DNA of 64,000 bases from Sphagnum compactum (lineage: Eukaryota). How positions within the stretch are numbered: position 1 is the first letter of the stretch; the number at the start of each line of letters is the position of its first letter. A program made the translations under genes and the position numbers. The stretch covers positions 31,362,213 through 31,426,212 of the forward strand of contig OZ234493.1 of NCBI GenBank assembly GCA_965153455.1. Reading direction: 5' to 3'. Under the pieces are notes generated by a model, which was not told where the DNA came from, searched no databases, and was given only the letters and a program-made list of their open reading frames with translations. Positions 9,298 through 60,262 of the stretch are shown here, piece after piece.

Positions 9298-12200
9298 TAA
9301 TGTTGCCTAAATATGAAGTTTTGATACTCACCCCATGATACTAATATGGCATATTCTTTAAAATTTTATAATAAAAGGATGTGCATAAAAGCAATTAACA
9401 ATGTATTTATCAATATATATATAAATTGATGTCCATTTCTTTCCTTTAGTGGATATGGATGTGTTGGTTTTCAAAATCAAAATAATGATAGGATATGTAC
9501 AAAAGTTAAGGATGAATTTTGATGTTTGGAATTAATTTTTGAAATCACACATTAATTTACAAGAACATACAAATTTTGCAAAATCAATAATTTATGGGGT
9601 AGTTGAACTTCAATTTTTTCAAGAACTCTACCCAATGCAAGACAAGCTTTCTATCCCAACCACACCCCATAGAAAACACATAAGCACCCCAACCCTACAA
9701 AACACAACATCGTCCATGTCATTGGTGAGTTGCACAAATGAACCATGCATTCATAATGCGACAATTTAATTTTTTCCAATGCAAATTGTCATTTAGATTT
9801 GGGATTCCAAAGGTTGCATTACAAGTTGTATTATATAAATTTGAGATTCTAACAACCTTAAAGGAGAATAGAAAAACAACAAAAATATTTGTGATCTCAC
9901 CTTGCTAAACCTAATCCCTACTACAATTGTTTAAAATAACTTATTTCCTCAAGCAAGTCATACTTTTCTTTAGCCAATGGATTTTCAACTTTCATAAAGT
10001 CTACCAAATTTGTATGTAATGTACAATTCAAATGTCAATCATTAAGTTAGTTCTTCATCACAACAATGATGTGATTTATGTTCTCCACTATAACTTGCAA
10101 CATCTTAGAATTATCGACACATTGGCAAGACTAAACACACATTTAGTTTCAATTTGTGGTATTGGAATTCCTAAAATGTATTTGGCAAAAAAACCAATGT
10201 TTGGGAATTGACTTTCATGATTGTGCCACAAAACAAGGGGATTGACACATGCAACTATAGTTAGAAATAACCTCCTAAACAAATATAACTCCCCAACAAG
10301 TGCACATGAAGACTCTTCAATAAAGGTGGCAACATCAAAAATGTTATTGTCTTCTTCAATAAAATCATTAGATCTAACAATTAATCCATCATTTGGTGTT
10401 GCACATGCTTGAATAATAATGTAATATTTCAAAGACCATCATTAGAAAGGGGATTACTACATTTGCATTGTATTCAAAAGAAAAACATATACAATCCCCA
10501 CATCCCACATAATTTTCCATAGCCCGCAAAGACTTGAAACAAGGATATAGTTGGACATGTTTTTTTGAAAGACGAAGACCTTGAAATCAAAGGCATCAAA
10601 AACATTAGTCTCATTTGTAATTCATCCATCTTAAATTCCAAAGTTAGTGTTAAATTAATAGACATAATGAAAGCATCACATAATAGCCAATGATTTCATG
10701 ATTGGTTCATCATGTACATAGTGACGACATGATTCAAGGCATTCGTGACTACTTATATAATTATCCATATTTCAGCCTTAGGAATTGTTTTCAATGCAAA
10801 GTCCTTTGCCACCTATAACACAAGATAATGACATGTTTGAATTCCAATGCCTCCTCAAACATAATCACTTTATTACCAAATTTGGTCTTCATCGAACCAG
10901 TTTTGAATTTTGTGGTTGCAACAATTTTTAACACATAGCTTCCCACATTTTTGTTTCCCCTTTCTTGATTTAGAAAATGCATGTGATTATCTTCTATATA
11001 CCACCTTAGGTAGCCTTCACATTAACATGTTTCAAACCCACAATCACCTTTTCGTCATTTGTAACATATTAATAGGCCTTAAACATAATGTGACCAAAAT
11101 AAATACTTTCATAAACCCATAATGATGAAAGCCAATAATGGAACGTAATGTTGTCACCATAGGCATTATCTTTCACAAAAATAATTTCATGATGCGTCAA
11201 ACCATACTTTTGAAATAAAGATTACAACTAACTAGTCATGAAAAGCCCCTGGTTTGATGAATTTCAAATAAACCTACAATAACATGCATAGGGGTTCAAA
11301 AATCATTTAAATAATTAATTATAAGGGAAAATGTGTCCACACCACCCCTAGTCATCCAAAGATAAAACTAGTGGACATGGTTGTTGCAAATGTGAGATTA
11401 AACAACACCTAATTTTTGTCATGATCATTGTAGGAAATATTTCTTCCACCAAACTAAAGTGAAAAGCAAAAATAACACATGGGCATTAACCTAACATTAT
11501 CATCCATAGACAAATATTTTCACAAATGGAAAGGGCCATGTAACCTTTACAAATATACAACATTGGATTTTCAAAAAATTGTTATTGTGCCTTATAACCT
11601 TTTTTGTAAAGATTTGTGAAAAAACAAAATGTCATGATCGCATACCCATTTTGCCTATATCTCTTTTTCGTTGGTTGTCAACCATGATTTGCCTCAACAA
11701 CTTTCTTCGCACTCATCAACTTCCTCTAAACAACCAACCTTGAATGTGCAAATTCAAATATTGGTCTTCATAGGAATGATAATTTTAGCCTTGTATTTGA
11801 TGAGACCACCCTTAAAGTAGATCCTTAGCACATAGTATTAGCACTTGCTTGCTTTGTTTTGCAAATAACAACATTTGCGAATTTTTTTAATCCACAAGTT
11901 GTTATTGATAAGAAAAAACCCCTAGCAAATAGAGTTTTGCCTATGTGGCTTCCATGCTGCAACTTGAACTTGTATAACCACAAGTTGCATAACTCAATTT
12001 CAACATAATTAATCATAGTAGCTTGCATATGCATGTTGTCTTTAACATCTAACAAGTTGCAATTCACATTAAAAGTTGTTATTCTAACATTTTCTTTGAC
12101 CATGTTGACAAATTCAAGCAAACATACATTTTTTCTAACCATCAAACATGGACTTGACATTTAACCATAATAACACAAAGACAAAACACAAAATTACAAC

Positions 12201-13134
12201 CTTATTTATTTATTTTAAATGTAAAGGTAATTGAGATTGCTTAACGCTTGCTATTGAAAGACCATAAGTGCATGGGAACATTGCAAACTACAAAATGAAG
12301 ACAAAACACAAAACAAACAACAAAATTAACGATAAAATACAACAAAGTAAAAACTTTCAAGTTCAAGTGCAAAAATTCACCTTGCAAAGTGTGAAGACCT
12401 TGAATTTCACAATGCAAGAAATGCAAAGTGAAAAGTGTGTGAAATGCATGAAGGCAGAAAATGGAAAGTTGTGATTCTCAAGTTGGAAGAGCAAAAATTT
12501 CGATGCTCAAGTCCAAAATGCAAAGACTGAAGTTCAAAACTTAAGACCACCTCTTCCAAAAAACACAAAAATCACAAACTGACAAGCTTAAGACTCAAGA
12601 CTCAAAATTGCCTCTCCCAAAAACACATAAACCATACACTTGAAATCAACAAACTCAAGACTCAAGATTGCTAAAAGTTGCAGAGGCACTACCACTCCAC
12701 CGATGAAATAAACGTTACGTTGGTGTGCATGCTTGTGACTACGACAAAAATTAAAATAAAATGCAAGCTTTGCTATTGCTTGAAAAAAACACACACACAA
12801 ACGAAAACCCCAAAACCCTAACAAGAAGCTCCATATCTAACCCCCTTAAACCCTAATTATTGGATAAATGCACGTGTATGTATATATGTGGATTCAAGTA
12901 CTGTATATCTTTTTCTAGTGGGTATGAATAACCCTACCTATCCCCATATCTGGTCCCCTAGTAACACTAGCATGCAGATATATGAAAATTAGCCAAACCT
13001 AACCTCCGGATATACATAACTAACCAATAATGGTTGAATAATCCTGGATATTTGGAAAAAAAGAGAAAAAAATTCAGGATATGGTTAGATTCATATCCAG
13101 ATTTTTCCACATTTCCAGTGTCCAGCCAACACTG
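9298..13134 (-). mobile_element. hAT DNA transposon related to 21056-28682, ~3.8 kb, decayed, without the cargo block
   Basis: The end at 9298 (TAATGTTGCCTAAATATGAAG..) aligns with the right end of the larger copy over >100 bp. The end at 13134 (reverse complement CAGTGTTGGCTGG..) and its subterminal region resemble the larger copy's left end. The TSD is only degenerate (GGTAAAAC vs GTGAAAAA). Confidence 0.75.
9921..12050 (-). pseudogene. hAT transposase pseudogene
   Basis: Fragments collinear with 25870-28106: SFDASSK/DLFIEEDNNIFDVATFIEESSCALVGELYLFRRL..NPLVLWHNHESQFPNIGFFAKYILGIPIPQIETKCVFSLA, MKTKFGNKVIMFEEALEFKHVIILCY, NLVDFMKVENPLAKEKYDLLEE. Many stops and frameshifts. Confidence 0.9.
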
Positions 13135-13652: not shown

Positions 13653-16639
13653 CAGAGGAGCGAGGGGGTGAAACAGAGCGTGACTTTTTTAAGGATAACT
13701 CTAATATTTTGCAGAAATGTTGAAAATTTTGAAAAGTATTAATTTTTTTCAAAGGACACAATCTGGCAAAGAAAAAATAAAGAACCTTTAGAATATTCTA
13801 CTTTCATATAAGGTCCAGTATTTTCTTAATGAATTTTGTGATGTAGTGAAAGTGGCAATCATCCATAGGAAGATTTAGCCAATTTTGGCTATGAAAAGTA
13901 GTTAATTTTTTTTTGGCTAGCCCTTTTATTTAAGTGCTGCAATCTATATATATATGTTGCTAGTATTGGATGAATAGGGGGATGAAAGTACCTTTGTCCA
14001 ATCATGTAGAGGGAACAAAGATTGGTCATGAGTAGGTAGGTATTCAAGGCCCAACTTACTCCCTCCTACCTTTTGGTTATCCTAGTACAACTTTGGTGGA
14101 TGGAAAAGAAAGCTAGCAAGTAAACTTTCTTGGCTTTTGGAGGGCCCTTCATATATGTGCATGTCACTCCTAGAAAGGATACCAAAAAGGAGGAGGGATG
14201 ATCTTACTTGGGAGTCCTCAATGAGGAGGGATCGTATGCTTACTCATATTAAGGAGAGATCTTTCACCTACCAAGGGCATAGGTAGGTGAAAGAGAATGC
14301 AAGAATTCTCTTCTCCAAAAGGCAGCCTGCCCGACTTGTTGGCCTTGCCTACCAAGGTAAGGATGTTGTGTTTGGATTCATTATAGAGTATATAGTAGCT
14401 TAAGGGATTTTGGCTCCTAGGTAGTAGGTCTATTTTTATATGAGGATTTTTGAAACATGATATTTTGGCTTGTGTGGAAACTTGAGATCAGTGTAAGTGC
14501 ATTTAGGATATTTATTTACATGTCATGTAAGTGTTTAATTTATTATATTCAAATCAATGTAACATCGGATATGTATGTGTGAATGCATAACCATGTAAGG
14601 CCATTTCATGTCATGTAAACCAATTGAAGTGCAACTATTTAAAAAAATACATGTAAATTTGTGTAAATAAACAAAAGAAGGGAGAAAAAGAGTGCAAAAC
14701 AAGGCCTTGTGACCCAACCCCTTTCCTAATTTTTCCCCCCTTCTCCCTTCCTTGAACCACCTCCATCCCCACTAACATTGAACATTATGATTTGAAATGG
14801 AGAGAAAAAAACGTTATAGCACTTCCCATTGTCATTATGATTATGAGTGCATAAAAATGAAGGTATTTCATTTTCATCATCATTGTCAATTATGGATTTC
14901 AATTTAACAAACTTTTGACATGAATTAGGGTAAAATGCACAGCAAAGCCTAACACATGCTGATGATGATTGGCTAGATAGTTTGATTGGTCCAGGTGGGT
15001 TGCTGTCAGTAGTCTCTCACCTGTTTGCAGTCCCAATTTTAGTTTTATGGGTGGGGTTGGAAAAGAAAATAAATAACTAAACTTGGATGCGAGAAATAGT
15101 TTTGCAAGGTCACATACTGAGCATCAGTGGAGGTGCTCCAAGAGGCTTGGAGAGTTAATAATTTAATAGAATATTCTTGAAATTTTGATAACTCTAAGCT
15201 GAATTTAGGGTACTTAAAAAAAACCAGATAGATTTTAATACCCATCCCTAAAACCCAACCCGATAGGATATGTATATTGTAATAATACATTGACAACTTC
15301 CACACATGTTTATCAAATAATTAATTAGTTGTGAAATTTTCATTTCAACAAAAAATCTTCAAAATTTCACTAATCCCCTTCACAAATTTTTGTTATTTGA
15401 AAAATTAATGATTTTCAAAAATTTCAGGGTTTAATTAGTGTGTCAAATGTGTGTTGCACCACGGTTGCGCATTCACAATGAATATGATGTAATCAAAAGT
15501 CTTGGAGAGTTGTTAATTTAGGTGGCTGATATGGAATTCAATTGCTATGAAAGACTGGAGGATGGACTTCACTCCCCAAAACCTCTCATGATTCCTATGT
15601 AGATAGCCCAACACTATTCAAACCTGGACTCTCTCTTCTTTGGTAGGTGGTAGACACTAAAAGATGAACACTAAAGCAGGTGAGAGTGTGCTCATTGTTT
15701 TGGTGTGCATTCAAATTGGACATGATTAAACTAGACATTATAGGTCATGCTTTTGTTGTAATGAGTTGAAGGTTTGGAGCCCAAATGGCAAAGCAATAAC
15801 CTATCTCGAGCAATGATGGTGGAATTTTAAAAGATGGCCATGTGGGTGTTAAGTTCATTGTCCCAAATACACAGCCATTTTTATTTTTTTGCATTATGAG
15901 TAAAGATTTTGGAGGATTTGGTCTTTAATGGTAAGGGCGGGTTGCAAGAATTGCATCATGAGCAAAATTTTCGAGCTTTTGGGTTCTTTGTTCGCAATGG
16001 GATATTTGATGATGCCATCCAACTCATGCTTGGTTGGTGAACCCCTAAAGGAGTTTGAGTAGCCCAAAAGAACATAAGTCCCCACAAGGTCATTAATATA
16101 TATATATATAATTTATTATTTTATTTTAAAAATTGATATTAAAATTTTGGCCAAAAAAAGAGAAAATTTAGTCAAACTTACACTAGAAAAAATAATCCCC
16201 AATTTTACACAATTTTTTTTTCAAAAAGACGAAAAATAAATTTCAGAAATGAAATCGCTAGTCCTTATAGTTAGAGTCAATTTTATTTTTCTCTGACCGG
16301 ATATTTGTGAAAACTTTCTCTTTGATATCATAATAGTCGAATAATAAATCGGCTCTTTGATTTAGTTTACACCTTTTTAATTCATATATATATATATATA
16401 GCTTGAGAAAGCTTACCTTAACCTAGTGCTCTAACCCTAACCTAACCCTAGATTGAGAACCCCTTCTCATCATCTGGGGGTTGAATACATGGGGGTGCCG
16501 GTTCTTTCCATGATGTGCTCCAGGGGTGTTTCTAGCCAGCGGGTATCTGCCGAGTCACCTCCGGCATATACCCAAGGAGATTTAAAAAATGAGTTTCTAA
16601 TGAAGAAAGTGATATCCGTCCAACAATGGTTCTGTTTAC

Positions 16640-17290: not shown

Positions 17291-17749
17291 TCCTTAAGTA
17301 AACTTTTTATCGTCCCTATCCTAATAGGTAGGTGGGTAAGTAGGAGGTAGATAGGTACTAAATAAATAAGTACCCCAAGGGTAGGTAGGTATAGGTAGGT
17401 TGGTAACCTATAGAATGTTGCTTGAAATGAATGTTCAATCTTTGAAATGAAATAATTATTTGTGAATTGTTTAGTTGCAAACAAAATTTAGATGTTTCAC
17501 CTAATCTAAATTCATTAAAAATTTTGATTTGTCACTAAATCCTCGTTAATTTTTCTTTGAATCATTGAATATCTATTTTTGGATCATTTTTCATTTAATG
17601 AAATTAAATTCAAATTTCATTGGTGGAAACATTTTTTTTCATTGTGTATGAAAACATGGCACATAGTTATGTTGAGGTTAGAAAGGATGTTCACCATGTA
17701 AATACCTTGTGAGTTTTCTTGTCTCTTTGTTTTAGGTATTATATGTGGT

Positions 17750-18722: not shown

Positions 18723-20164
18723 TTGTGCACACCGTAAATTAATTTGCTCAACATTGCTACATGCAATAGGTGTTTCCAAGATAAAGGCACACAAAAAAAA
18801 AAAAAGATGTAGCAAGATGTGTAGAAGGAACACATAGAAAAAGATGCACAATAGAGATGCACAACAAAGAGATGTAGAAGATCGATGCAATAGAAAAATG
18901 CATAGAAGCGAGAAGCAATGTGCAACAATTAAGCAAACACGAGTTTGCAAAGTTTGAATCTTTGTGCATTTTGGAGAGAAAAACTGGGCCAGGTGTTACA
19001 TGTCAATAACTTACGTCATGTGAATTCATGGTGGTAAACTTGCGATTGAAGATAGAGGTGAAAATCTACATTTTTCCAAGCTTTTGAAGTAATCAACAAT
19101 AGTTTATCACTAATCACTAGCACATTAAGTAATGTGTTTAGTAATGTGCCATGTGTGCACACCACATAGACTACTTACCAATGACTAGATGCATAATGTG
19201 ACCATTTGTAACTTATATTAACTTTACCAATCTTGCTATCACTTGTGTGTGAAAGTAGCTTAAGAAGGTAAGAAGGGCTGTTTTTTACTACTTACATACT
19301 AGCAATCCATTAGCAGGTTTCTAGGAGGCAGGTAAGTAAAAGAAAGCAACCGAATTAACCACCATGGTTAAATAGGGAATTGAAACCCAACAGAAAAGTG
19401 TTTGCTAATCACTTATCATCCATCATCCATGATGCACAGGTGTGGTTCACTTTGGCCTTGAAATACATATATGCACATAAGTCTTTGCAATGATATTGAC
19501 CTCGATTAACATACCGTAGTACCATGGCAAGTTCAACATTTTAGTGTCAAAATGATTATTTTATTTTGAAATTTTTCATGTTGAAAAAGGGGGGGAAAAT
19601 AAAATAAAATTCCGGAATTTTCTTTTTTTAAATCTCTGTTTTCCTTCACCAAAAAAATAATTTGAAATTTTCTTTTTGGGGGAAAAATTTCCGATTAGTC
19701 GAATTTACACGATTAAAAAACAACCAAAATTTTCTCAATTTTTGGTCCAAAAAATGACAAAATTTGTCAAAAATTTATAATCACCAGTTCCAACAGAGTT
19801 ACACGCAGAGTGACTGCACAAGTGTAAAACAGCAACCGAGCTAGGGAACCAAGGTTAGCTAGGGAACTGGAACCCAACGGGAAAGTTTTCCCTGTCCACC
19901 TATCATCCATCCATCCCTCACATGTAACTCTTGTTGGTTCACTCTGACCTACAACAACTTATTCCATCCATAGCAATAAGAGGGATGTGCTACACTTCCA
20001 CATCCAAATAATTGTGACAAAAATTAAATAAATAATTGTGACAGGTTTATTCCAAGTCAAAGACTAGGTGACTGGCTTAAATCCCCATTTTCTTAAAAAC
20101 CATTAGAAAAATATGTGTGTTGCAATTTATTGACAATTTCTTTTTTTTAGTTATTTGGTTTCTA

Positions 20165-20526
20165 GGTTTGTTGGTCTTGCCTACAAGGCAAGGATATAGT
20201 GTTTAGATTCATAAGATTCATAAGGAATGACGCAAGGTTAGTTCACCTTCATTCTTCAAGGTTAGTACCGTAGCTTAGGGAATAATAGGTCTATTTTGAT
20301 ATGAGGATTTTTGAAAGATGATATTTTGGCTTGTGTTGAAAGTTGAGATTAGTTATATAGAGTTATAATATCTTGAAGGATTTTGGTTTCTTTTTGAGGA
20401 TTGTTTGAAGATTATATATTTTTGCATGATGGTGAAATATTTTGAGTTTTCATCACTCTTCTCTTTGCCTTAAGATACTTTTTGATGTAAATGACAAGGC
20501 CACAATGTGACACACACCCCTTGTTG
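20165..20526. repeat. Dispersed repeat family (other copies: 14338-14490 same strand; 36660-36990 inverted)
   Basis: Shared core AGGTCTATTTT.ATATGAGGATTTTTGAAA.ATGATATTTTGGCTTGTGT.GAAA.TTGAGAT. The 36660-36990 copy is near-identical over most of its length. Confidence 0.9.
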
Positions 20527-20735
20527 GTTTTTGCAATGGGTGTTGTTTAGACTACCTAGAGAGACCAATGTTGTTGGTCTGGAAGTGTATGTAGGTCAAC
20601 ATACACTATGTGCCCCCACCAAAAAGATGGTTTTCCAATAACTCCTCCATCCTGTCAGATTCCAACTTTCTTCATGCAAATCATGTCTGGGAGAAATTCC
20701 CACATAATTTTGAAGATGACTCTTTTCTCTTTTTT

Positions 20736-20773
<38 letters not shown>

Positions 20774-21389
20774 TTTTTAAATTTAAAAAAATTACACCAC
20801 TTTTTCATTCAAATCTGTCTGTTTGTGTTGAGTCAATAGAGTTTTATAGATACACACACACACACACACACACACACATGAAGCACTGAATAAGCATTAT
20901 AGGTAAACCATGGTTGGTGACCACCTACACAACCATGGTTTCCCTATAACTCACATTGCTGTAGCTTGTGATTTGTAAACATATGATGTTACAAAATAGG
21001 GGCCAGAGTGAAACTGCAACTAACTGCCACACTATGGAGGGTGGAGGGTTTAGGGCAGTGTTGCCCGCATATATCGAAAATTCCGGATACGAACCCGGAT
21101 AGTACCCATATATGCATATAGTCATACGCGGAATTTGTTTTTTCAAATGTTCATCTTTATATATATCCGGCATAAAACGGTCATGCAATAACCAGTGCTC
21201 ATCCATATCCGGGTGGGAATTGCCCGTACCAATATGCACATCCGGGCACTCATGGATGGATATGCCCGGATATGCATAATATGCATATGCATCTCCAACG
21301 CATAACCGGTGCATTTTGGCATATGATTGGTTAGGGATTAAGGTTAGGGTTAGATCGAGATGGAGCTCGCACCGCTTAGGGTTTAGTGA

Positions 21390-21550
21390 TCTAGCTTCAT
21401 CATCCTTGTGTGGCTTTTCATCCGATGTTCCCAAGGTTGAGGCAACATGACCCTTGACTTGACCAACTTTTTCTTTGGTAGCTTGAACTATCTCAGACAC
21501 CTTCTAAGCAGCATTGTCCTTTGCTTCACTGCCTTGTCCTTTGTTGCTCT
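21390..21550 (-). pseudogene. LEA (group 3 / LEA_4-like) gene fragment inside the hAT element
   Basis: Minus-strand translation ..(ATKDK) SEAKDNAA*KVSEIVQATKEKVGQVKGHVASTLG.. shows the A/K/E/Q/T-rich periodicity of group-3 LEA 11-mer repeats. The TAG is probably a former CAG. Confidence 0.6.
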
Positions 21551-21748
21551 CTATGAAGTTGACGGTCTCAAGTTGAAGGTGTGAAGTTGAAGTTCGAAGG
21601 TTTGAAGTCTAAGGTCACTATGGTCAGAGGTATGATGAAGTTGAAGGTATGAGCTTTAAACATCTAAGTGCTTTCTTTGTGAGGTTTGAGGTTTAACGTC
21701 AGAACATTTTTTTCTTTGGCTTTGTTGTTTTGTTTGGTTTGTAATTTA

Positions 21749-21956
21749 TTTCCGGAGTAGGTGTATGCAATAATGGCAGTAGTGGATTTGTATGAGGATT
21801 TCGTGCCTTGGAGCCAAAGTTCCCGCATTCTATGGTGTAAACATGATGATGATGATCAAGGTCTTCTTAACGCAAAAATTGAAGTTGGGTTCAAGTTCTT
21901 TGTGAAGAGATATATCTCACATGTGTAGCTAGCTGAAACCACCCAACCTAATCAAA
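21749..21956 (+). pseudogene. Captured exon of a COQ10-like (coenzyme Q-binding START/polyketide-cyclase domain) gene inside the hAT element
   Basis: Translates FPE*VYAIMAVVDLYEDFVPWSQSSRILW...NAKIEVGFKFFVKRYISHV*L..PNLIK followed by a GTAAGT donor at 21957. This fits the plant COQ10 pattern SPEQ.F.VVAAVDLY..FVPWCQ.S...DAELEIGFKFLVESY.SHV. Disabled by two TAG stops and a 4-nt duplication. Confidence 0.85.
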
Positions 21957-24900
21957 GTAAGTATCCATCCATCCCATTTCTTGCCCCCCAAAAAAAGGAC
22001 CCACATCCTCCCTCTCTCCTTTTCTATGTGTGATCTTTTCCTACAAAAAATGCCTATTCAACAATACCTCCGCATGTGTTCCAAAGCTAACTAACCATTC
22101 CAGTTTCTCTGGCATTTACAATTGGTAAAACATTCTGTTGTTGTGGACTCCTTCAACATTTTCATCGGCCATTTCATCATGCCTAGAGGTTTTGGAGCAT
22201 ATTAATATCCCTTAATGTTTCGTGACTTGGCTCATTGGAGTTCTTATCATCTTTTACATACCAACAAACTTCCTTTTTTTTTGGAAATGTTTAACAATGT
22301 TCACAACACATTTGTGCCCTAGTTTTTTTTCTCCCTCTAAGCTCATGGGTAGCTAGGAATGCATGACTGATACATGTTTTTGTCTACTTTTGTCATGTGT
22401 GGTAAGGATAAGTTGCCTTGACCTCTGATGTCTAAATTTCAACAATTCCCTGTAATAGGTGCATGCAAGTTTACAATATTGAAATTGACCATTGACATTG
22501 TTGCATCTTGGAAAGGGGTTTGTATTCTTTTTGCATGTTTTCAATTTCTTTTTGCAGCTTTACTCCTTCAGGTTGGTCTTGTTGCTTGTGGAATCTAAGA
22601 CATGAATGGAAAATGCCAGACGGAAGATGCTTCTTTTTTTTATGATGCACAATCAAGAAAGCACCAAAGAGGTGCAAAGACCTCTTTGGGATAATGTGGA
22701 TTTTTGAAGGATATGGTGTAAAAACCTCGATGCAATCAAATTATTTTTTAATATCTTGACAATTTGTAGTTTCCCAACCTCTAATCCATCATTAATGGGA
22801 TTGAGATCAAACCTTGTTTTGTTGCTATATATGGCATTTTATCCCACTGCCAAAGGGTGCAGCCATTCCCACTCCTTGCGAATGGGAGCTTTTTCAACTT
22901 TGTTATAATTATTCTTGTAGTAAAGTAAGATGATCCAAATTTAGATGAAATGGGTAGCTAAACTGCTATTTGTTGGATTTCTACTTATCTGTTTCCCATG
23001 TTGTGAAGCTTGGAACCAACAATAAAGGAGCCTTGGTTCTCTTATCCTTGTTTACCTTTATGTCTACTTCTTTTTATTGCTCCCTCTACTATGTGGTCTG
23101 ACACCATCTGCACACAAGAACATCATAGTGATCCATTATGTGCCACATAACACTATGATTGCACATACTCCATGTCATCTTCACATATTGGAATGGTCTG
23201 TGCGCTTCCAGTTACACTTCTCTGTAAAATATGTTCTAGAGTTCTTATGAATAATTGAACTAAAATGTGTGTACAAGACAATGTGTGATATGTGAATGAA
23301 ATCTACTTTTGGTTGCATTAGCAAAGAAAGTGCAATTTGTGTTTTCACAAAAATGTGGAATGAACCAAGAATGTGAGGTTGAAACTTGAAACCTTCATGT
23401 ATTCAATGAGGACACAAAGAAATGGCAAATAGCCAAGTAAAATAGAGGTGGGAAGTGAATAATGATGAAAGGGTATAACTAAAAATTTCTACAGTATGGG
23501 TTAAAGATGATGTAGAAATCAAAAACATGCAAGGCAATCTATGGATCATGAAGGGATGGTGAATGGTGAAGATATGCACTCTTTGAGTTGTTTCATCTTT
23601 CATGATAACTATTTAGTTCTATGTTAATCTCAGTCCATTGGAGTAAATTTCAGAATTGGAAGTGTTAATTTGCATTGTAAGAGATGATATTTTTTTTAAT
23701 GCGTCCAATGAATATAGTTGGTTGGCTTCATCCTTGTTTCGTATCAACCCAACATGGTTTGAACTTTAGAATATAGTAGGGCTTTATGAAGTTAGGAGTG
23801 GATTGGATAGAAATCAACTAGGCAATGGTTATATATGGCCTCATGAAGTTTTGTTTTTAATGTTAAATTGTCTTCAAATGTACATGTCAATTTGATTTCA
23901 TGTTTCCAGTGCGAAGGTCAAGAATTTAATCATGACTAATGTCTTTGGATGGTGAAATGTTTTTCGTCACAATGTGCAAATTCCCATAAATTGAATTTGT
24001 ATATTTGAATATGCCAAACATTCACTTCCTTCCTGTAAATATGCCGACTATGGGGGTCAAGGTTAAACTCAACTTCTACCATAATGATTTTTCTTGCATT
24101 AATTACATCTACCAATGACAACCAGAGGTTTTGTATTTGGTGTATTACATCATAAGTCAAAACAATGCTTATTTATAGGTTTTTTCATGTGGATGCAAGG
24201 TTTTGAAATATGGTTGTTAGCATGAAAAGCTTACTTGTGTTTTCATATGTTTCCTTGTTCAATTTGGAGATGATGTTTTCATTCCAACTAATGAGCCCCA
24301 TGTTTCAATTGAAGCACGATTAACCGGGGAACCCATCCTGATTTCCAATTTGTGAAATGCTACCAAGGTATATGTGATACAAGTTTCTAGATTCAAGATG
24401 TTGACATATCGCACTCCAAGTTGTTAGTATATAAAAAATAACAATGATTATTTTATTATTTGATTTAGTTAAAGGATATCTTGGCAGTGCTCAGTGATGA
24501 CAGTAGCTTGATTAGCAATGAACATGGACTTTGTGTTCTAAAAGCATATATTTTTAGATATTATCATTCATAGCAATTGTTCTAAGTTATTTGGTTCATG
24601 GTTACTTTAACATATTGATTGAGTTCTGTTGGCAATTTGTAGAAACCAATGGTTGGGCTGAGACTTGCACAACTTTTTCAAATTCCATCATTGTCATGGT
24701 TTTTTATGAACAATTATTACTCTAGCTTGGCAACTGGAATATATCTCCATAGAAATTGTTTGACATCTTTCAAGTGTCTTCTTCTACTTTTATATGTCAT
24801 CCATCATTCCTCCAAGTCTTTGCGACCTTGTGTAGAGTACCATATACAAAAAGATGTTTGCTAATCATCTCCTGGATTTCTAATTCAAGTTTCAACATTT

Positions 24901-25869
24901 TCTTCCCATCTTCCCGCTTTAGATTCTCTTGTGGACTGGTTTTTGTTTTGGTTTTTCTTTGCAGAGAACAATAATGTCATCACCAAGGAACAATGATTCC
25001 TAGCTTATGAATAAGATGGAATTTGTTTTGTTGTTTTCAAGGTTTCTTTGGGCTTTGCAAACAATAATGAGTGTTGTAATATGCAACAAAATATTGGTTG
25101 GTTGTGATATTGATTAATGAATTTGGTTGTTGTTGTTGGGGTTTTTTTTTTGTTTTACAAATAACAAACAATGTCACAAAGCCAATGATAATTTCTTTGG
25201 CTCAAATAGTTGATTGAATATGCCTACTTGTTTTTCATTTTTGTGTTATTTTTTGTTGCTTTGCAGACAATAGTGTCACAAAACAACCTTTTCAATTACC
25301 TAAACAACTAGCATGATCTTTCAAACCAAACCCAACACCCAATTCTTGTCACCTAATTCACCTAGATTCTACTATTGATGGTTGATGCATTCATTGAAAT
25401 TATCTTCCAATTGGCGCGTCTATAACTTCGGTGGAGATTCCAACAATTTGGTTTACATCAACACTTCTACATCAACCATTGATAAGATAAATCCTTTAGA
25501 CTTCATGTTTCTTCAATTTGTTTGCTGTACATATTCAATTATGTTTTGTACATGTGTCCATGAACCTCTTCCAATTGAATTGTGAGCTTTCATGCCTTGC
25601 CTTGAACTTTTTTTTTTTTTTTTGCATTTTGTTGGTTTTTTAGGGTTAGGTTGTAATTTTGGTTTTATAGTAGAGAACGATGGTTGAAAATGATGATGTG
25701 CAATTGGTTGAATCCATTGATGATATTGATGGAAGACCATTAGCATCAAATGTTTAAAGTATGCATATGCATGGCTCTGTTGGTGTTATTTCTATTAATG
25801 TTGCCTCAAATCTTGTTGTTGTTGTTATTGCCTCAAATTATACTATTATTGCTTTAGATTCTACTAAGG

Positions 25870-28106
25870 TTCAAATGCAACAGTTGGTAGCTATACAAGC
25901 ACAAATTATAGTTTGGAAACCACACAGTCAAATCTCACTATGTTAGGGTTTTTTTGGGTGTAAATGACAACTTACCTATCGATCTTGAGAAGCCGCAAAT
26001 GTTGCGATGCATTATTTGTAGAACAAAGCAAGTTGGTGCTCTTGATTTACGCCAATGTTCTACTTTACGAAAAGGATTTATTAAATATGGTAAGATTAAT
26101 GGGATCATTCCCATGAAGACCCATGTTGAATTTGTACATCCAAAGTTGGTTGCTCACAAAAAGTTGGCCATTATTGGAAAACTTCTTGTTGTTGCTGCAA
26201 GTCACAATCAATAGTCTAGGAAGAAGTAGTCTAGGCCATCTAGGTGTGCAATCACATCATATTTTTGTGCTACAAACCTTTACAAAAAGTTTGATGAGGC
26301 ACAACAACAGTTTGTTGAAGGCCTAGTCTTGTATACTTGCAAGGGGTACATGCCCCTTTCCACTTGTGACAATATTTGTTTGAGGAGGTTGGTATTACAC
26401 CTATGCTCGCGTGTTGTTTTTCCTTTTCAGGCTATGTTTGTAGAAGAAGTGTTGCCTACAATGGTAAAAAAAACCATGCGATTACATGTGTTGTTAAGGC
26501 TTGTTAAGGCAACAACATTGTTAGCTAGTTTTGATCTTGGATGTCCAAAGGTGGCGTGGACACCTTGCCTTGGTAATCAATTATTTAAATGTATCTTGGA
26601 TGCCCCAACATGTTACCATTGGTTTGTTTGAGGTTCATGAGATCGATGGGCTTTCCATGGCTGGTTAGTTGCATTCATTATGAAAAGTATGATTTAATGC
26701 ATCGTATGATTGCCTCTGTGAAAGATGAACGCAACAACTTGATGTCTAGATGGCAATAACATTGCGTTCCATTGTTGATTGTTGCCTTTTGAAACTTTAG
26801 TGGGTTTATGAAGGTACGTGTTTTGGTCACATTATGTTTAAAACTTGCCAATATGCTATTAATGATGAAAATGTGACTACAAATCTGAAACAAATTAGTG
26901 TGAAGGTTGCCCAAGGAAACTTATAAAAGATAATCACAATGACAAAAAAATCAGGAAAGGGAAGGTAGGAATGGGGAAGGGCATGTGTTGAGAAAAGGTT
27001 GCGGCCTCGAAAACTTAAGACCCCAGTGAAAACAAGATTTGTTAGTAAGGTAATCATGTTTGAAGAGGTATTGGAATTCAAAAAGGCCATTCTTTTGTGT
27101 AATGGGCGGCATAAAACAATTGTTTTGTAACAAAGAATTCCTAAGGCTGAGGTATGGGCAATTGCAGAAGCATTCACATTTGGTTGAATCATGTTGTCAC
27201 TGCCTATGTGATGAACCAGTCATGGGGGCATTGGCTACTATCTAATGCTCTTAATACATGTATCAATTTAACATTGATTTTGGAAGTTGAGGTTGGACAG
27301 GCTACTGATGTTTTTGATGCTTTGGATGCATCTGATACTGAGTTTATCATCTTTCAAAACAACATGCAGGCAGTTGTTAAGGTCATCAAACCTTTTCTAC
27401 AATTTCTGCAAGCCTATGATTCACATCAAGTGCATAATATGTTCGCCCTTATGTTTGATCCTAAGTTCAAGTCTTTGAGGGTTGTGGAAAATTATGTGGG
27501 ACATGGGGCTTTTATTCATCTTGTTGTAGAGTATGATGCCAATATAGTAATCCCTCTTTTAATGATTGTGTTTGAGGTACTAAACCTTATTGTCCAAGCA
27601 TGTGTAATAAAAGTTATTGGATCTGTTGCTAGGTTTGGTGATTTCGTTGAAGAAAACAATAATATATTTGGTGTGGGCGCAACTATGGAAAAGTCATCAT
27701 GTGCACTTGTTATTGGGGAATTGTCCTTGTTCAAGAGGTTATATGTATCCCCTGCTACATGTGTTGATCCTTCAACTTGGTGGTGGATTCATGAAATCCA
27801 ATTCCCAAATGTTAGCTTCATTGCTAAACAAATATTGGGAATTATAAGATCACAGAGATTGAAACTGAACGTGTGTTCAATCTTGTTGGTGTTTTGACAT
27901 TTTTGAGACACTATAGGTTGCAAGTGGATAATTTAGACCAAATCATCACTGTGGTGACGAACTGGCCTGACAATCCTCATTTGAATTATTCACAACATAA
28001 GGATTTGACAGACTTTGTGAAAGTTGAATTTGTATCACCTAAAGACAATTATGATTTGATTGAGGAATCAAATTATTTTGAACAATTGGAACTGGATAAG
28101 GATTAA
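25870..28106 (+). pseudogene. hAT transposase pseudogene (BED finger, DDE core, hATC dimerisation domain)
   Basis: Frameshifted, stop-containing translation. BED-like region: VWKPHSQISLC..LRCIIC..MKTHVEFVHP. Catalytic motifs: SFDL(W)MSKGG (D1), VKDE (D2), TCFGH (CxxH), PVKTRF. hATC region with catalytic E: DPSTWWWIHEIQFPNVSFIAKQILGI..SQ(I)ETERVF. Confidence 0.92.
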
Positions 28107-28699
28107 TTTGGCATTGGCAAGGTGAATTAAAAAAATATTATTGTTTTTGGGATTGCATAACTTGAATGATAATTTGCACTTTGCACTTCATTTGAACCAA
28201 TGATTTGGTCTCTTTATTCATGCAGAGGTTACTTGTGGAGCTCATCAACAATAGGGATGGCTTTTATTTTGTTGGGTGTGTTTGTGGGTTAGGTGGGGTG
28301 TATGTGGGGGTGTGGTTGGGGCAGGAAACTTGTGTTGTGTTGGGCATGGTTCTTTAAAGAACTAGGGTTCAACTCCCCCACAAGTTATTGGTTTTTTAGA
28401 TGTTTTTTAATGCTCTAGTGGAGTAGGTCTATGACTAAAAAATTAATTCCACAAGTCAGGACAAATTCCTAACCTTTATACATATCTTATGATTAATGTG
28501 AGTTTGAAAACTAGAAAATGGATATCCGCCAAAATGAAAAATAAAAATAAAAAACATATCTATCCAATCAAGGATACTCATAATTTTTTTCTTGTGCATA
28601 TCCTTATGTTATAATTTTTTGAAAAATATTCCATATAGGTAACCTGAGAAATGTTTCAAATCTTCATACCCGAGCAACACTGGTTTAAGGTTTAGAGTT

Positions 28700-29210
28700 T
28701 AACATTGGGTGGTTCTTGCTATTTATGAACAACCTTTAGTTCTAATTATTTAGAAGAAGTTAGAATGGATTCGGTTCTAGTTTTAGTTCCACATAAAATG
28801 GAACCTTGGGTTTAATTCTTGTCCAATTTTTTGAAAAGAAAACATCTCATGTTTTTATTTTGGTTCTAGTTCCACCAAAAAATGGAAATCCAGATTTGGT
28901 TCTTGAAAAAAGAAATTCAAGTTCCAGTTTTGGTTATGGAAATTAGACTTGGTTTCGGTTCCACTTCCAAGTAACCCAGTCTAAAATGAATGATAAACTT
29001 CTAATTAACCCTCAATTGACCTTTGGTTCCAAACCATTTTCCCCCCAATTTATTTGATTTTTTCAAAAATTATGATTCCAATTCCAAAACCAAACCCAGT
29101 TTCAATTCCAATTCCAAAAATCAAACTTTGGTTTTGGTTTGGTTTTTACTAATAAAATTATACTAAAACCAACAATTCGAACCAACCAAACTGAGTAATT
29201 GCCCAACATT
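28700..29210. mobile_element. Non-autonomous hAT-type element, same family as 3602-4049, abutting the large hAT
   Basis: Ends (T)AACATTGGGTGGTTCTTGCTATTTATGAACAACCTTTAGTTC.. and ..GTAATTGCCCAACATTG; internal GGTTC/GAACC-like repeats. Confidence 0.6.
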
Positions 29211-32200
29211 GGTGTGAACAAAAAACACTTTTCCATTGTTCTTGTCTCATAGATAACCATGGTGGTTAATTATGTATCTACTTGCTTAGGAGTCACCAAA
29301 TGCCTTACCTACTTACTTATCTACATATTTGCCACTTAAATTCTTACTTATGTAAGATACTTAGCAAAATTACATAGGTTACCTAGGGAGAAAAATGGTG
29401 AAAAAGTAGGAGGGTTTACAAGATAGGTCAAGTTACCAAGGATCAATGGAGTTTGACCAAGGCGAGCCATATGCTCACCAACATTAGGTGTAATGCTTAT
29501 CTTTCTTTTCATCAAAATTTGTAAAATTAGATGTGATTTATGTTATTAAGTCCATGCCAAAAATCATTTTGTGACCCACAAAAGGAGGTCTCGCACATTC
29601 TCTATAGGAAACAAAGACATACTCTTCAAACACTGGTAGGATATTGTAGTACATGGCGATTTTGGCACAAATTAAATTATTTTATATTTTGCAGAAGTTT
29701 TTGAAAAAAAATCCTATTATTGAAAATTTAGAAAATTTAGATTATAAGAATCTAGAATCAAACCTTGGCCTTGGACAAATAAGCACATTAATTGTGAACA
29801 AACTAACCACAAAGACAATACGAAATTCTAAAGTTGAGTTATAATTTAATATGTAAAATTGTTATATGCTTAAAAGTCCACAATTAAAAACTCACATGGT
29901 GAATCTAAAATTTTAAAATAAAAAAATTATTTGCCACTTGTGTGTTAAATTCGCCTAAGTACTATAGTAATTACTTGGTGATCTATATCAATCTAAAATT
30001 GAACAAGTTTGTAATGTTATAATCATGTATGTATTTACTAATCAATATCAAGGTTGGTGACTTGAAAATTACGGAACCTACCATTGATTGTTATCATGGA
30101 CATCTAATGTAATTGTTGGATGGTACTCAATATATCATCCATTCACATCACTAAGCAAAGAAATTTGGAGTAGAAGTCAATTGTCTAGAATAACACAATG
30201 AAAAATTCATTCAATGATCAACCTCCATTCCCCACTTCTTTCAACATCTTCTCTATCTTTATCCTCAACACCTCCTTAGTTCTCCCTAGTTTGTTTATTC
30301 TTCCCTAATTTGCAATTGTTTGAAACAAAAACTTCACCACTAGATCCTAAAAAAACAAAATATAGAATGGTCTACTTTCTTACCTTATCTACAAAACAAT
30401 AGGTTGGGCATGATCTAGCCACTTTTCAAGATCGCACCCAATCTTCAAACTTGAATTGTGTTCTTGCCCATTTGAAACAACCTACTATTCAACTTCTCTT
30501 GCTTTCTAACTATTGCCCCCACTTGCTCTTTTTTTCTCCTTCTTCAATTTTCTTCTTTACACCCCATATAGAAGCTCCTTTCCCTAGCTTCTTCAACAAA
30601 CTTACCTGTTGAAATAATTGCCCACCATTAAAACCAAATGTGAATTTCAGCCTAGCCAAAAAACATCCAAAATGTTCCAAAAAAGTTGTAATGTGCAAAA
30701 CGAATAAAACCAACATTGTATGGTGAAAGCAACAACCCTAACCTTAGCCTAATGAGAATGCCAAGTTATTTTGGTGTAACGATTGCACACCCAACATGAA
30801 AAATATGCACACAAGTTTGTTGAAAAACTAACTTGGTGATGAGATGAACAAACTACACGTATTGTGTTGAGGTTAGGCATGTGTCTAGTTTAGTTTCTTT
30901 GGATAATTCCGTATCTTGTGATTACATTTCACATTGAAAGAAGTTCCAAAATCAAAAAAAGTATCTTATCAAAATGACCTAATAGATATTCCATTGAAAA
31001 TATTTATAAGTTGTAATTTTTGAGTTTATACACACACACACACACACACACACAAATGAGTATATATAAGAGATAGCATCTTAAGAAGTTGGATAAGGTG
31101 TAAGCAAGAGACTAAAAGCTAAAAAAAATTCAAATTACACTCCCATTTTGGGGGGTGAACTCTTGGGGAATCCTGAATGTTGTAAAATGAATTTGGGCAT
31201 GCAACCAACTCCTAGGATGGGTAACAAAGTGTCATTCCCAAGATGAAGGGAAATCTAAAAACATTCAAATTGGAATTAGACCAAACAATGGACAAAAACT
31301 AATATAATGTTTTTGAATGTTTTTTCCATAATAAACCTTAATTGCATATACTATGATCATTTGCAACAACATTGAAATTGCCAATGTGAGTCTTGAACGT
31401 TTTGACAATATAAGGAATCAAATGAAATTTGAATGAAAAGTTTGATACATCATTCAAAAGATATTTTTAAGGAATATAATTTTAAAAATTATATTCTCAA
31501 ATTTGGATACCATTTGAGAAAGATATGAAATTTTTATTTTTTGGGATTCATAAATAAACAAAGATTGGGAGTCCCAATTCAAGATGAGCCCACATTTTTT
31601 CATTCCAATGTGAGTGCAACAAAATGGGCAAATGTTTGGGGTTGCATCACCCAACCTTGTCCAAATAAAATTATTTTTGGTTTCTCAAATAAGTTTTGAA
31701 AAGGGTTACAACAAATTGTGCTCATATTCCTAGAAATATTCATTATCAAAAATTGAAAAATGTGCCAAAACAAATATCATTTTTCAAATATCAATTTGGA
31801 AGGGGAAATGACATCCAATTTATGAGCTTAACATGACATTGGAAAGCTTTCAATGAGAGTTGCAACATGGTTTAATCACATTCTCAGTATTCTTATTTTT
31901 TTTCTGGAGGAATTATGAGCCACCCAAAAATCACAAAACACCAATCAAAATAGCAAAATTTGGGATTTTTGAAAAACAATGCCATTTAATGTAATCTCAT
32001 GGATATATGCAAAGTATATTATTCCTAGAGAACAATGCAAAGAAACCTCACCGTGTTGAATTTAGAATGAAAAATTATGGTAAATTTGTGAGGTAGTTTG
32101 GTTTAAAATTACATTAATCATGACCTCTTTGTCATTCGTGCAATTGAGGTGATGGAAATGTGCATGTAACGTGTGTCATTTTTTCCTAATCATCTTGAAG

Positions 32201-36659: not shown

Positions 36660-36990
36660 ACAACAAGGGGTGTGTCACATGCAGCCTTGCCATTTACTAC
36701 ATTAAAAAGTATCTTAAAGCAAAAGAAGAATTATGGAAACTCAAATATTTCAGCAGGCAAAAATATAATCTTCAAAAAAATCCTCTAAAAGAAACCAAAA
36801 TCCTTCAAGATATTATAACTCTATATAACTAATCTCAACTTTCAACACAAGCCAAAATATCATCTTTCAAAAGTCCTCATATAAAAATAGACCTATTATT
36901 AGCTAGGGGTCCAAATCCCTTAAGCTACTAAACTCTATAATGAATCTAAACACAATATCCTTGCTTTGGAAGGCAAGTCCTACAAACACT
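36660..36990. repeat. Inverted copy of the 20165-20526 / 14338-14490 repeat
   Basis: AAAGAAACCAAAATCCTTCAAGATATTATAACTCTATATAACTAATCTCAACTTTCAACACAAGCCAAAATATCATCTTTCAAAA matches the reverse complement of ~20310-20393. Confidence 0.9.
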
Positions 36991-44220: not shown

Positions 44221-47200
44221 TTACATCCGATCTTCTCTCTGTCTGGGTGCGCACCGGATGATCTCATCCACACGTAGGATCATCTCTGCAGCCTCTGTAG
44301 CTGACAAAAGCACTGCCTGTTTAACCTTGAATGACTCATAAATGCCAAGCGCCTCCATATCGCCCACCTGCCAGAACAATTCGTTCGAAATTCAGCATCC
44401 TTCAGAAACAGGAACTAACAAAGAAGAACAAAGGCATGTTACCTCAAAATCCTCCAGGTCTACGAACTTCCTTTCCTTCCTTTTCTATTTAATGATGACT
44501 GTTAATTTTTAAAAATTTGATGCGAGTGAAGCCTTCAGAACTCGTCACCTTCCTTTCCTCAAGAGTTCTGAAGGCATTATTCACAACAAAGGGGGGGCCA
44601 AATTCATACAAAAAGCAGAAACTTAGAGAAGAAACTCATGACTCGCCTCGCCAGTGATGACATCAATACCGGCCTTGCTGTGGTCTCCAGAATGGGCAGC
44701 ACGCAACTGGGAGACTAAGTCAGCACTATCCAAGCCAGCATTATCAGCTATGGTTATAGGGATTGCACGCAATGCAGATGCAAATGACTCCATAGCAATC
44801 GATTTCTTGCCAGGGGTTTTGCGAGCAAGCTCATCAACATGTTTGCCCATGAGAATCTCAGGCCAGCCACCTCCCAGGAGCACACGGCTGTCCTGGACTG
44901 TCTGCACCAGCACACATAGTGCATCATGCAGCGACCGCTCAGCTTCATCCAGCACGTGTGAACTGCCAATCACCATAAGAAGATCAGCATTTTGAATGCC
45001 AATGAATTCACCGATCTAAGGTCTGTGAAAAGTGACAATCCTGAGATTGAGAAAGCCACCAGTAACAACAGCTAAACAAGTAAGACCAACAGTAAAACTG
45101 CTGCAAGTTACAGGCTTCTATCTAGCATTGTCAATTAAGTTCTCTTTGGAGGACTACAAATTCCTCAGAGTACTAAATAACTTCCCAATGGTGTGTCAAA
45201 CAGGAAAATTGATCTCAAGAGTGGAGAAAACAGGGAAATGATGGATAACTGATAGAGACCTTTCTGATGATGTAGCTCATCCAGCCACTTGCTAGCAATC
45301 TATATCCTCTTCAGCACAAAGCAGCCCTCCTAATGCACCTTAGGTTTCCAAGGATCACCTATTCTCTATCAAAGCACTGTTGGACTAGTTGAGGAGCTTA
45401 TCATAGTCAAGTCATTTTCCATTCTCCTTGCTCATTATTAGAAAGTAGGGGTTTGTAGTCCTGCAGTTTCTCAACAGACATCATCCTCACACAAAAAATC
45501 ATTAACAGCTAGTCGTAAGGAAGAGAGTGATGAGAAAACAGGTCAATCACCTGGCTCCACGGAGAACAATAGTACAGGCCTGGCCCAGTTCAACACCTGA
45601 AAAGTGGATGAGTCTATCTTCACCAATCATGATCTCCTCAATGAGCTTGCAGTGCCCAAGCTTTACAGACTCAGGACTGTCAAAGGTTGATGTAATTTCA
45701 CCCCCTGTTACAAGAGCTAACCGCTCAATGCCCTCAAAATCAGCATGCTCAATGGCCATAATGCCAGCATCTGCAAATAACTCTTCTGGGTAGTTATATA
45801 TGAGTTGACGGTTTACAAAGCAGTTGATTCCATGCTTAATGATTTGGCCCACTTTGTTCTTCATCTTGGTCTTTTCTGCTGCTTCAATATCAGCTACTTT
45901 TGACATTGCATCCACACGCACACGTGCACCATAGATCTTGACTTTGTCTGTGTCCATAGCTGTATTAGCAACAAGGATGTTTGCATTCTCAATTCTCTTG
46001 GGCTGTCCAACTCCAATCTTCTTGTCAAGAATGAACCTGCACTTCATCAACAATTGACAAAGATGACAGATTGCTCATGACAAGAATCAGAGCCTATGAG
46101 GTTCTCCATTTTTGACCCCTAAAGCCAGTGAAGAACTGGTGGTGATGTTGATTTCATTACCAGAATGAATACAGAGAACAAGAAGCCATTGCCACAGTGA
46201 GAAAAGAAGGGACCCACATACCCCTCATCCAGATATGAATCCTTCAGTGAACCTCCCGCCTTCTTGATGATTTGAATTGCTTCCATGTTGGAACTTCCCT
46301 GTGGTCAGAGACAAGGACAACCTCAACAGAGATCACAGCCACAACGAAAATTGTTCATAATTGAAGATGATCTGTACATGAGTTATTTCACTTTAGTGCA
46401 ACAATCCAAAAGGGTGGGATCAGGTAGGTATATGAAAAATCCCTGTTGCATACTGAATTCACTACAAGGACATACTGAGCTCCCTCAAAAGGATCACAAA
46501 ACTACATTACACCCAGGGTAAAGATAATCAAGCAAGTGTACCTTCAACCGCAAGACTGCATCCACAGCGAGGTTAGCAAAATGCTCCTTGTCCTGAGACA
46601 AAATTTTGGAGCTCAGCGTTGTCATTGCAATGTTACAGAGGTCAGACCGAAACTTCTCTGCAGTATATAACACACAGATCACAGTTGTGACATGAGTTAC
46701 AATACAGCAAATGACATTGAGAAATGTCAAGAAAACACTGTGATTCTCAAGCAAACCTTGATGCAGGATTCAAAACAGTGTTTACCTATATCCTCTCTGT
46801 TGTCACGGACACTATTTTCTAGAGCGGTACGTGCTGTTTCAGCTGCAATTCGGTAACCTGCAAATCTCAAGCAACCCATCAGCAACCAGAGCATGTGACA
46901 TCTCATGCAAACCAAGGAGCCCAATCCAAGCTTGTACTCACTTGCTTGGTGGATTCCTCTTCTATTAGACCTTCTGGTGCAAGCAAATGAAAAAGGTATT
47001 CAGAGGAAGCCTTTTAGAAGATACCAGCAATTATGGTCATGGGGTGGATCTTGAGGGCAACTAGCTTCTCAGCTTCTCTCAGTAATTCACCAGCCAGCAC
47101 CACAACAGAGGTCGTCCCATCCCCAACCTCATCATCCTGAACTTTGGAAATGTCTGTTGCCACTAGCTCCAGTTAGATATCCCTCTCTCCTCATGAAATA

Positions 47201-60231: not shown

Positions 60232-60262
<31 letters not shown>

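Follow-up and report, generated by a model that had tools for sequence, protein, structure and literature searches.

Can a hAT transposon that bears its own transposase gene take up pieces of host genes and go on moving with them? The question is raised by a locus in Sphagnum compactum, within a stretch of 64,000 nucleotides (contig OZ234493.1 of assembly GCA_965153455.1, positions 31,362,213 to 31,426,212) that we refer to as the window; it is eukaryotic, AT-rich (GC 35.5%) and contains no N, and positions given below without a locus name are counted from its first letter. A preliminary description, made from the letters alone, had read positions 21056-28682 as a single transposase-bearing hAT that also carries fragments of at least two unrelated host genes. 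We confirmed that this interval is one hAT element of about 7.6 kb, now decayed. We consider it very probable that the element is one copy of an old inactive hAT family, in which a block made of an LEA-like frame and a COQ10-type piece was captured a single time and spread to at least six sites, with a later subfamily arising among the copies.

The two ends of the element are well defined. The left end CAGTGTTGCCCG (21056-21067) and the right end ...CGAGCAACACTG (28671-28682) are complementary at 11 of 12 positions. We searched for terminal inverted repeats (TIRs) using an end pattern, CAGTGTTGCCCGGATAT, a 17-nucleotide sequence taken from related copies. It matches the left TIR CAGTGTTGCCCGCATAT (21056-21072, plus strand) at 16 of 17 positions and the right TIR (28666-28682, minus strand) at 15 of 17, and its only other match in the window is a site with three mismatches at 16612-16628. 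By chance 0.08 matches are expected in the window, and none of 100 shuffled sequences had three or more. The ends of one related copy, L011, match the pattern at 16/17 twice, where 0.01 matches are expected by chance. The left end starts identically in all 27 loci in which it can be aligned. The element is flanked by GTTTAGGG on the left (21048-21055) and GTTTAAGG on the right (28683-28690), which differ by one change; the 8-bp target-site duplication claimed for the window copy is hence not identical there (7/8), and it is perfect in the related filled sites of L006, L001 and L002, where the same GTTTAGGG stands on both sides (8/8).

The related copies come from a scan of metagenome contigs using an alignment of a window fragment together with three short predicted proteins, P0001-P0003, which gave 341 pattern matches and 41 confirmed loci. 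Thirty-two of these loci are copies of the element, and the other nine (L021-L024, L026, L028-L030 and L032; 51-58% protein identity) are genuine COQ10-type genes or transcripts. The most informative copy is L005, 7479 bp long, which is collinear with 21056-28688 at 84.4% identity and lies between unrelated flanks with a perfect duplication, GTATAAAC. It bears out the claim that the two ends belong to one element with the cargo as an integral part.

The same data bear on the alternative that the two termini stem from different hAT insertions with ordinary host DNA between them, as a chance pairing or a one-off composite. Such an origin could account for the one difference in eight between the window flanks and for the left 4.8 kb having no match in a sibling hAT copy elsewhere in the window. 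But the whole 7.6-kb unit recurs in L005 with the same ends and a perfect 8-bp duplication at another place, a related filled site has an 8/8 duplication, and no internal copy of the end sequence was found in the window copy or in L011 at up to three mismatches; we find this alternative scarcely credible. The filled site in question is L006, which is collinear with 19496-31000 of the window at 87.6% identity and whose outer flanks are 92-93.5% identical to those of the window. L006 thus holds this very insertion, in a genome related to that of the window.

The LEA-like and COQ10 cargo recurs at independent places: it is present at every one of six insertion sites, A to F, that have different flanks and duplications. 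Site A (the window, L001-L003, L006 and L012/L013; duplication GTTTAGGG) holds a 7.6-kb element with transposase remnants, and further versions of it are found in L001-L003 (a second version, 9.3 kb long in L001 and L002 owing to two later insertions) and in L012/L013 (a third version, in which the left end of the element is lost). Site B (L004, L005 and L041; duplication GTATAAAC) holds 7.5 kb with transposase remnants, and site C (L008, L010, L011, L016, L019 and L020; duplication GTAGCAAC) 6.6-7.3 kb, again with transposase remnants; L009 has the site C structure with no flank visible. Site D (L014, L015 and L031) has the left flank GTATCAAC, its right end lying outside the contigs. The copies at site E (L007, L017, L018, L025 and L027; GTTTATTC / GTTTACTC) are 2.1-2.2 kb long and have no transposase, and those at site F (L033-L040; GTTTTTTC / GTTTTTTG) are about 3.1 kb long. 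Among the 17 copies with both ends visible, the duplications agree at 8/8 positions in four (L005, L006, L001 and L002), at 7/8 in ten (the window and nine others), at 6/8 in two and at 5/8 in one.

We calculated a maximum-likelihood tree of 20 of the 33 copies, based on the sequence between the left end and the end of the exon and leaving out the near-duplicates and the copies with no left end (L002, L003, L004, L009, L012, L013, L015, L020, L027, L033, L034, L038 and L039). Every site forms a clade, with support values of 100/99 for A, 97/94 for B, 100/99 for C, 100/100 for D, 98/98 for E and 100/100 for F. The branches between the sites are short, as would be expected if the insertions came in a burst and the copies then diverged separately.

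The COQ10-type piece is a complete exon of the family PF03364, now a pseudo-exon, at 21745-21956 on the plus strand. COQ10 is what we take to be the name of the eukaryotic members of this family. It was recognized through its similarity to P0004, a genuine family member of 259 amino acids (PF03364 82.3 bits; E-value of 3e-13 to the PDB structure 1T17), which in a tblastn search matches the window at 21734-21937 with an E-value of 3.7e-19. No other exon of P0004 was found in the window, the next tblastn matches having E-values of 0.3 or higher; since the window encodes no further part of P0004, the piece is an isolated exon and not a resident gene. Its limits are those of a conserved exon covering roughly residues 106-171 of P0004 in seven intron-bearing homologues (L022, L023, L024, L026, L028, L030 and L032), where it begins with YSPEQ, ends with LIK and precedes an intron. 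Within the exon the frame 21761-21925 matches the Pfam family Polyketide_cyc with an E-value of 0.0041, under the cut-off, and the exon fragment alone scores 17.8 bits for PF03364 against a cut-off of 23.4.

Intron-derived DNA is present on both sides of the exon. Upstream, the DNA alignment shows a former splice acceptor with a pyrimidine-rich tract (21700-21744, plus strand); at 21743-21744 the window has AA, where six of the 13 other aligned copies (L005, L011, L013, L014, L036 and L037) have the acceptor AG. Downstream, the splice donor GTAAGT (21957-21962) and its flank (21957-22037, plus strand) are present in all copies covering the region; the reading of a plus-strand COQ10 exon with its splice donor was correct. 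The window exon is disabled by TAG codons at 21758-21760 and 21926-21928 and by a frameshifting 4-nt duplication of tagc (21926-21933), and it contains four GAT units at 21845-21856. We aligned the exon DNA of 14 copies with two genuine genes (L021 and L023). All 14 copies contain some 18 nucleotides, the GAT run among them, that are missing from both genuine genes, and the frame-breaking 4-nt insertion is common to every one of the 12 copies in which the 3' part of the exon is covered. These common changes, together with the intron borders, indicate that the exon was acquired once, as genomic DNA, and then spread with the element. More generally, as the same cargo with the same frameshift is found in copies at six sites, there was one capture followed by transposition.

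The second cargo frame lies on the minus strand. In the window only 38 codons of it remain (21390-21503), other copies keeping pieces of up to 128 amino acids; pooled over the copies the frame has about 200 codons and a common stop, and in L011 it has an internal repeat of 99 nt (33 residues). It had been described as an LEA-like fragment. The remnant is real as sequence, and it has no match to any LEA family: no LEA Pfam family was found at an E-value of 0.1 or lower for the window remnant or for the frames of 103-115 amino acids in L011 and L018, and the matches to Apolipoprotein, DUF883 and YtxH are all below threshold. What the 99-nt repeat in L011 offers, through amphipathic repeats in multiples of 11 residues, is a resemblance to LEA proteins only. 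A search of 1.84 billion representative proteins gave 38 matches. Those at 58-82% identity are taken to be short frames of other transposon copies, the cluster members having been checked for the P0017 cluster only, and the remaining ones are at most 39% identical and belong to a mixed set of amphipathic-repeat proteins. None of 14 long database matches has an LEA Pfam family at an E-value of 0.001 or lower, and none of the source names of 10 database matches carries an LEA label. We conclude that LEA-like is a fair description of the look of the frame.

The frame might then be an accessory frame borne by the element, or a compositional repeat that only looks like LEA, rather than part of a captured host gene; we regard this as a possible, if doubtful, explanation. 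The missing LEA Pfam match speaks for it, as do the relatives outside the transposon copies, the best of which are at most 38% identical, a mixed set and free of LEA names. Yet the frame is missing from the sibling hAT, and its roughly 200 codons can be followed across the copies with their 99-nt repeat and common stop. The frame is disrupted in all 19 copies examined, none keeping a piece longer than 128 amino acids, and therefore it was not kept by selection within the element. Of the proposed fragments of two host genes, the COQ10 piece is thus tied to a host gene family, while the LEA-like frame has no such tie.

That the cargo is an addition to an ordinary hAT can be seen from the sibling copy, which belongs to a related lineage and occupies 9298-13134 on the minus strand. 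As had been observed, it has no cargo block: it matches only 25875-28686, i.e. the transposase and the 3' end, at 66-68% identity, plus a 333-bp left subterminal region. The alignment of the left ends runs to ...ATGGAGCT..TTAGGGTTT, and the similarity ends at 21388, exactly where the cargo starts. The corresponding 5' subterminal region of the hAT proper (21056-21388, plus strand) is matched by all copies of the element. As the sibling shares this region only up to 21388, the cargo must be an addition. We found no copies of the sibling lineage among the 41 loci. The ends of the sibling are decayed (TAATGTTGCCTA / CAGCCAACACTG), and its flanks, ggtaaaac and gtgaaaaa, agree at 5/8 positions.

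The addition could itself have been a transposon, for instance a Helitron or a MULE bearing genes, that nested in the ancestral hAT, the gene pieces having been captured by that other transposon family. The distribution among the copies would be no different had such an insertion taken place in their common ancestor, and a palindrome with an 8-bp stem lies at the left edge of the cargo in the full-block copies (L011 2228-2250). Nevertheless, no inverted repeat bounds the block: in L011:1884-4400 the only inverted pair is a small palindrome in the hAT subterminal region. The preliminary description had itself named a nested element with its own TIRs as the finding that would speak against it, and we found neither an internal TIR copy nor a bounding inverted repeat; the other refuting outcome that it had named, termini from different insertions, did not arise either. 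No duplication was seen at the block edges in the sequences inspected, no transposase or Rep/helicase family was found in the block using Pfam, and outside the hAT copies no part of the block recurs, either in the rest of the window or in the flanks of the 41 loci. We consider a nested element quite unlikely.

Under the reading that we prefer, the ancestor would have taken the foreign block directly inside its 5' subterminal region, once. The captured block would have consisted of the LEA-like frame in antisense, a 33-bp tandem array and the COQ10-type intron-exon-intron piece in sense; the array is left as a remnant at 21556-21608 in the window and has 5-8 units in L011. The cargo-bearing element would then have spread by cut-and-paste to at least six sites, in long transposase-bearing forms and in internally deleted short forms. 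The window copy would be a member of a younger subfamily, in which about 720 bp of the LEA-like frame were lost and a further 2.9 kb were added.

This subfamily is well marked. ATCT at 21389-21392 marks a deletion of about 720 bp by which the copies of sites A, B and D lost most of the LEA-like frame, and the junction is identical in the window, L005 and L014. In the copies at sites C, E and F (L011, L018, L036 and others) 455-783 extra bases are found at 21388/21390 and continue the LEA-like frame. Together with the 720-bp deletion, sites A, B and D have in common a segment of 2.9 kb (22038-24937), found only in this subfamily; site C has about 325 bp of unrelated sequence there, and the following region 5' of the transposase gene (24938-25911, plus strand) is again in common with the site C copies. 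The subfamily occupies three sites, and so the 7.6-kb form transposed after both the deletion and the gain. The 2.9-kb segment has no Pfam match at an E-value of 0.1 or lower beyond a chance-level one to ENTH (E-value of 0.043), no Rfam match at the same threshold, and no match elsewhere in the window or to the 325-bp segment of site C.

The copies at sites E and F are internal-deletion derivatives of 2-3 kb, those at site E being reduced to the exon and both ends. The deletion junction at site E shows a 6-bp microhomology, TTTGTG, and of the junctions at site F one shows a 6-bp microhomology, TTCTTG, and a second has a filler of about 16 nt. Such microhomology and filler are the trace expected when an excision is followed by error-prone repair synthesis. 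Both the capture and the subsequent deletions might have come about in this way, through template switching during error-prone repair synthesis at the double-strand breaks left by excision. For the formation of Ds elements the term abortive gap repair is in use.

A different route of capture would have two neighbouring hAT insertions mobilise the host DNA between them through their outermost ends, with no repair synthesis involved. This route, a model put forward for Pack-TYPE elements, has been described for hAT and PIF elements (PMC8903248), and the window itself holds two hAT copies at a distance of 8 kb. However, it should leave inner ends, and none was found at up to three mismatches, though decay could have erased them; moreover, two unrelated gene pieces in opposite orientation and a tandem array, all in about 1.9 kb, look like patched filler more than like a single piece of host DNA. 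We consider this route unlikely, and we continue to favour capture during repair.

Did the element move by itself while it carried the cargo? The transposase is confined to the right third of the unit, as first described: a pseudogene with several frameshifts and stops spans 25912-28106 on the plus strand (29% of the unit), with the C-terminal dimerisation region near 27700-28010 and a longest frame of 248 amino acids. The domain Dimer_Tnp_hAT (PF05699, cut-off 21.4 bits) was not detected in the window copy, where a frameshift splits it. Homologous open reading frames pass the cut-off in L005 (31.0 bits), L006 (24.9 bits) and, just above it, the window sibling (21.8 bits, at 10091-10438 on the minus strand), and that of L001 stays just under it (18.5 bits). 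The features of the hAT superfamily found here are the 8-bp duplications, the 17-bp TIRs and this domain above cut-off in three homologous copies. No Pfam match was found to zf-BED or to the hAT-like RNase-H in the open reading frames of the window or of the related loci; by eye, a CxxC...HxxxxH spacing can be made out in the frame 25912-26211. The neighbours of the 248-amino-acid frame in a protein atlas carry hAT families, including BED and RNase-H (scores of 0.89-0.91), and are leads only. A protein search for longer homologues of this frame had no match, and in the transposase region of nine related loci the longest frame has 182 amino acids.

The family is dead in all the material examined. 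The suggestion that it shuffled exons while still autonomous is not borne out by the copies examined, the transposase being broken in every one; as none of them is intact, we can only infer past autonomy. The long form might have supplied its own transposase while bearing the cargo. The transposase-bearing forms at sites A, B and C would fit with such self-mobilisation, and equally with mobilisation in trans.

Several points weigh against the history proposed here as a whole. Not one of the 104 frames of at least 40 amino acids in 20415-29269, i.e. in the window copy, matches a hAT Pfam family at an E-value of 0.1 or lower, and no intact transposase was found in any copy examined (at most 248 amino acids in the window and 182 in the nine loci). 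No donor gene of the COQ10 piece was recovered among the fetched loci, nor any host parent gene for the LEA-like frame, whose host origin is therefore not demonstrable. Every locus was reached by way of the COQ10 piece, a search that would miss cargo-free members of the subfamily and gives no measure of the share of members with cargo. Finally, the contigs are 82-93% identical to the window and hence represent related genomes, only site A being shown in the genome of the window.

A bolder hypothesis, which we put forward tentatively and hold to be rather doubtful, is that the transposase-bearing lineage gained foreign DNA at least three times (the LEA-like piece, the COQ10 piece and the 2.9-kb segment) and transposed after each gain. 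It would then act as a serial carrier of exons, not as a Pack element that has reached a dead end, and exon copies with both splice sites could splice into host transcripts when they lie in introns.

The cargo also has consequences for annotation. P0001-P0003 resemble the exon and the noncoding DNA on either side of it, and these public gene predictions, together with the P0017 cluster, are transposon cargo frames. For one such prediction the source gives the name "ribosome-associated toxin RatA", apparently an artefact of annotation. COQ10-like and LEA-like frames within copies of this family should be annotated as transposon-borne pseudogene pieces.

Some copies carry later changes of their own. 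Two site C copies have a common insertion of 620-635 bp (L011 7429-8064 and L019 14157-14779, 85% alike) at the position equivalent to 28238-28243. Three insertions of 820-836 bp (L001 10576-11412, L001 16550-17372 and L019 10491-11314) belong to one repeat family and are 74-76% alike; they begin with TGTCGCAACCCC / TGTTGCAACCCC, end in ...GCGTCA, have a 5-bp overlap at the insertion point and look like solo long terminal repeats. They sit inside the hAT copies, postdate the hAT insertions and are not found in the window copy. In the site B copy L041, the equivalent of 21887-22924 is inverted (1380-2417) with about 450 bp unmatched on each side, either a rearrangement or an assembly artefact.

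Around site A, the window lacks at 17414-17416 about 4.3 kb that are present in L001, L003 and L006 (L006 877-5223). Part of this sequence is joined directly to element position 21582 in L013, which is a deletion variant of site A. The match with three mismatches at 16612-16628 (CATTGTTGGACGGATAT, minus strand) lies just before 16641, where the collinearity with L001, L003 and L006 starts, and could mark the terminus of a further hAT-type element. Copies of a dispersed repeat, about 250-330 bp long and 86-92% alike, are found at 14336-14492, 20167-20529 and 36661-36986 and in L005 (17063-17386); both in the window and in several loci the repeat is located close to hAT copies. Farther away we found exons of a TCP-1/cpn60 chaperonin (44626-46769, minus strand; E-values of 5.6e-31 and 6e-36) and of a core-2/I-branching enzyme (58554-60568, minus strand), which appear to be ordinary host genes split into exons.

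How does the element compare with known systems? The novelty claimed for it was overstated, as transposase-bearing hATs with genic cargo have been published (PMC2528002, PMC3538342). Hatvine-6 of grapevine is described by Benjak et al. (2008; PMC2528002) as having a common transposase and TIRs and variable regions of genic and non-genic host DNA. Both are plant hATs that combine a transposase-coding region and TIRs with genic DNA of exon/intron type. They differ in that, according to the same account, the added sequence of Hatvine-6 is often unique or found in few elements, whereas here one block is found at six sites, deletion derivatives included, and all copies are decayed. Manning et al. 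(2013; PMC3538342) described a hAT of Pyrenophora tritici-repentis, likely autonomous, of about 5.6 kb with a histone H3-like gene, and its 2.3-kb derivative. There too a long form combines transposase and captured gene, a short derivative arose via recombination at a short shared sequence, and both forms are multicopy. In contrast, that element is fungal, its copies are near-identical and it carries a whole expressed gene (PMC3538342), whereas ours has one exon and a broken frame in copies that are 11-18% diverged from the window.

The Pack-hAT elements of maize and rice are defined as non-autonomous (Gisby and Catoni 2022; PMC8903248), and in the pipeline of these authors a transposase match is enough for an element to be classed as autonomous. 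Du et al. (2011; PMC3260210) reported gene fragments in Ds elements; they regard them as a rare feature in hAT and cite replication errors in the repair of excision breaks as the route that has been suggested for their capture. Our family resembles both in its hAT ends, its 8-bp duplication and its intron-containing gene fragments inside, and its short forms, at sites E and F, match this description (PMC8903248, PMC3260210). When the copies are compared with the definition of Pack-TYPE elements, host coding DNA between hAT TIRs and a target-site duplication is provided by the COQ10-type exon. Transposase sequence is absent from the site E copies and present in the window copy as a 2.2-kb remnant, so the window copy, unlike those at site E, is by definition not a Pack-TYPE element.

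We found no literature on hAT gene capture in mosses, as judged by title, and a 2026 review (PMC13317346) does not contain the term "hAT" in its main text. With gene capture considered rare in the hAT superfamily (PMC3260210), the value of this case is that a single hAT family shows the full series, from capture through the spread of a long form and a later subfamily with an additional 2.9 kb to short derivatives with repair signatures. It also shows that the cargo in such elements will be missed by pipelines that treat each element matching a transposase as autonomous (PMC8903248). The element in the window is a further, well-resolved example of the gene capture already published for hAT transposons.

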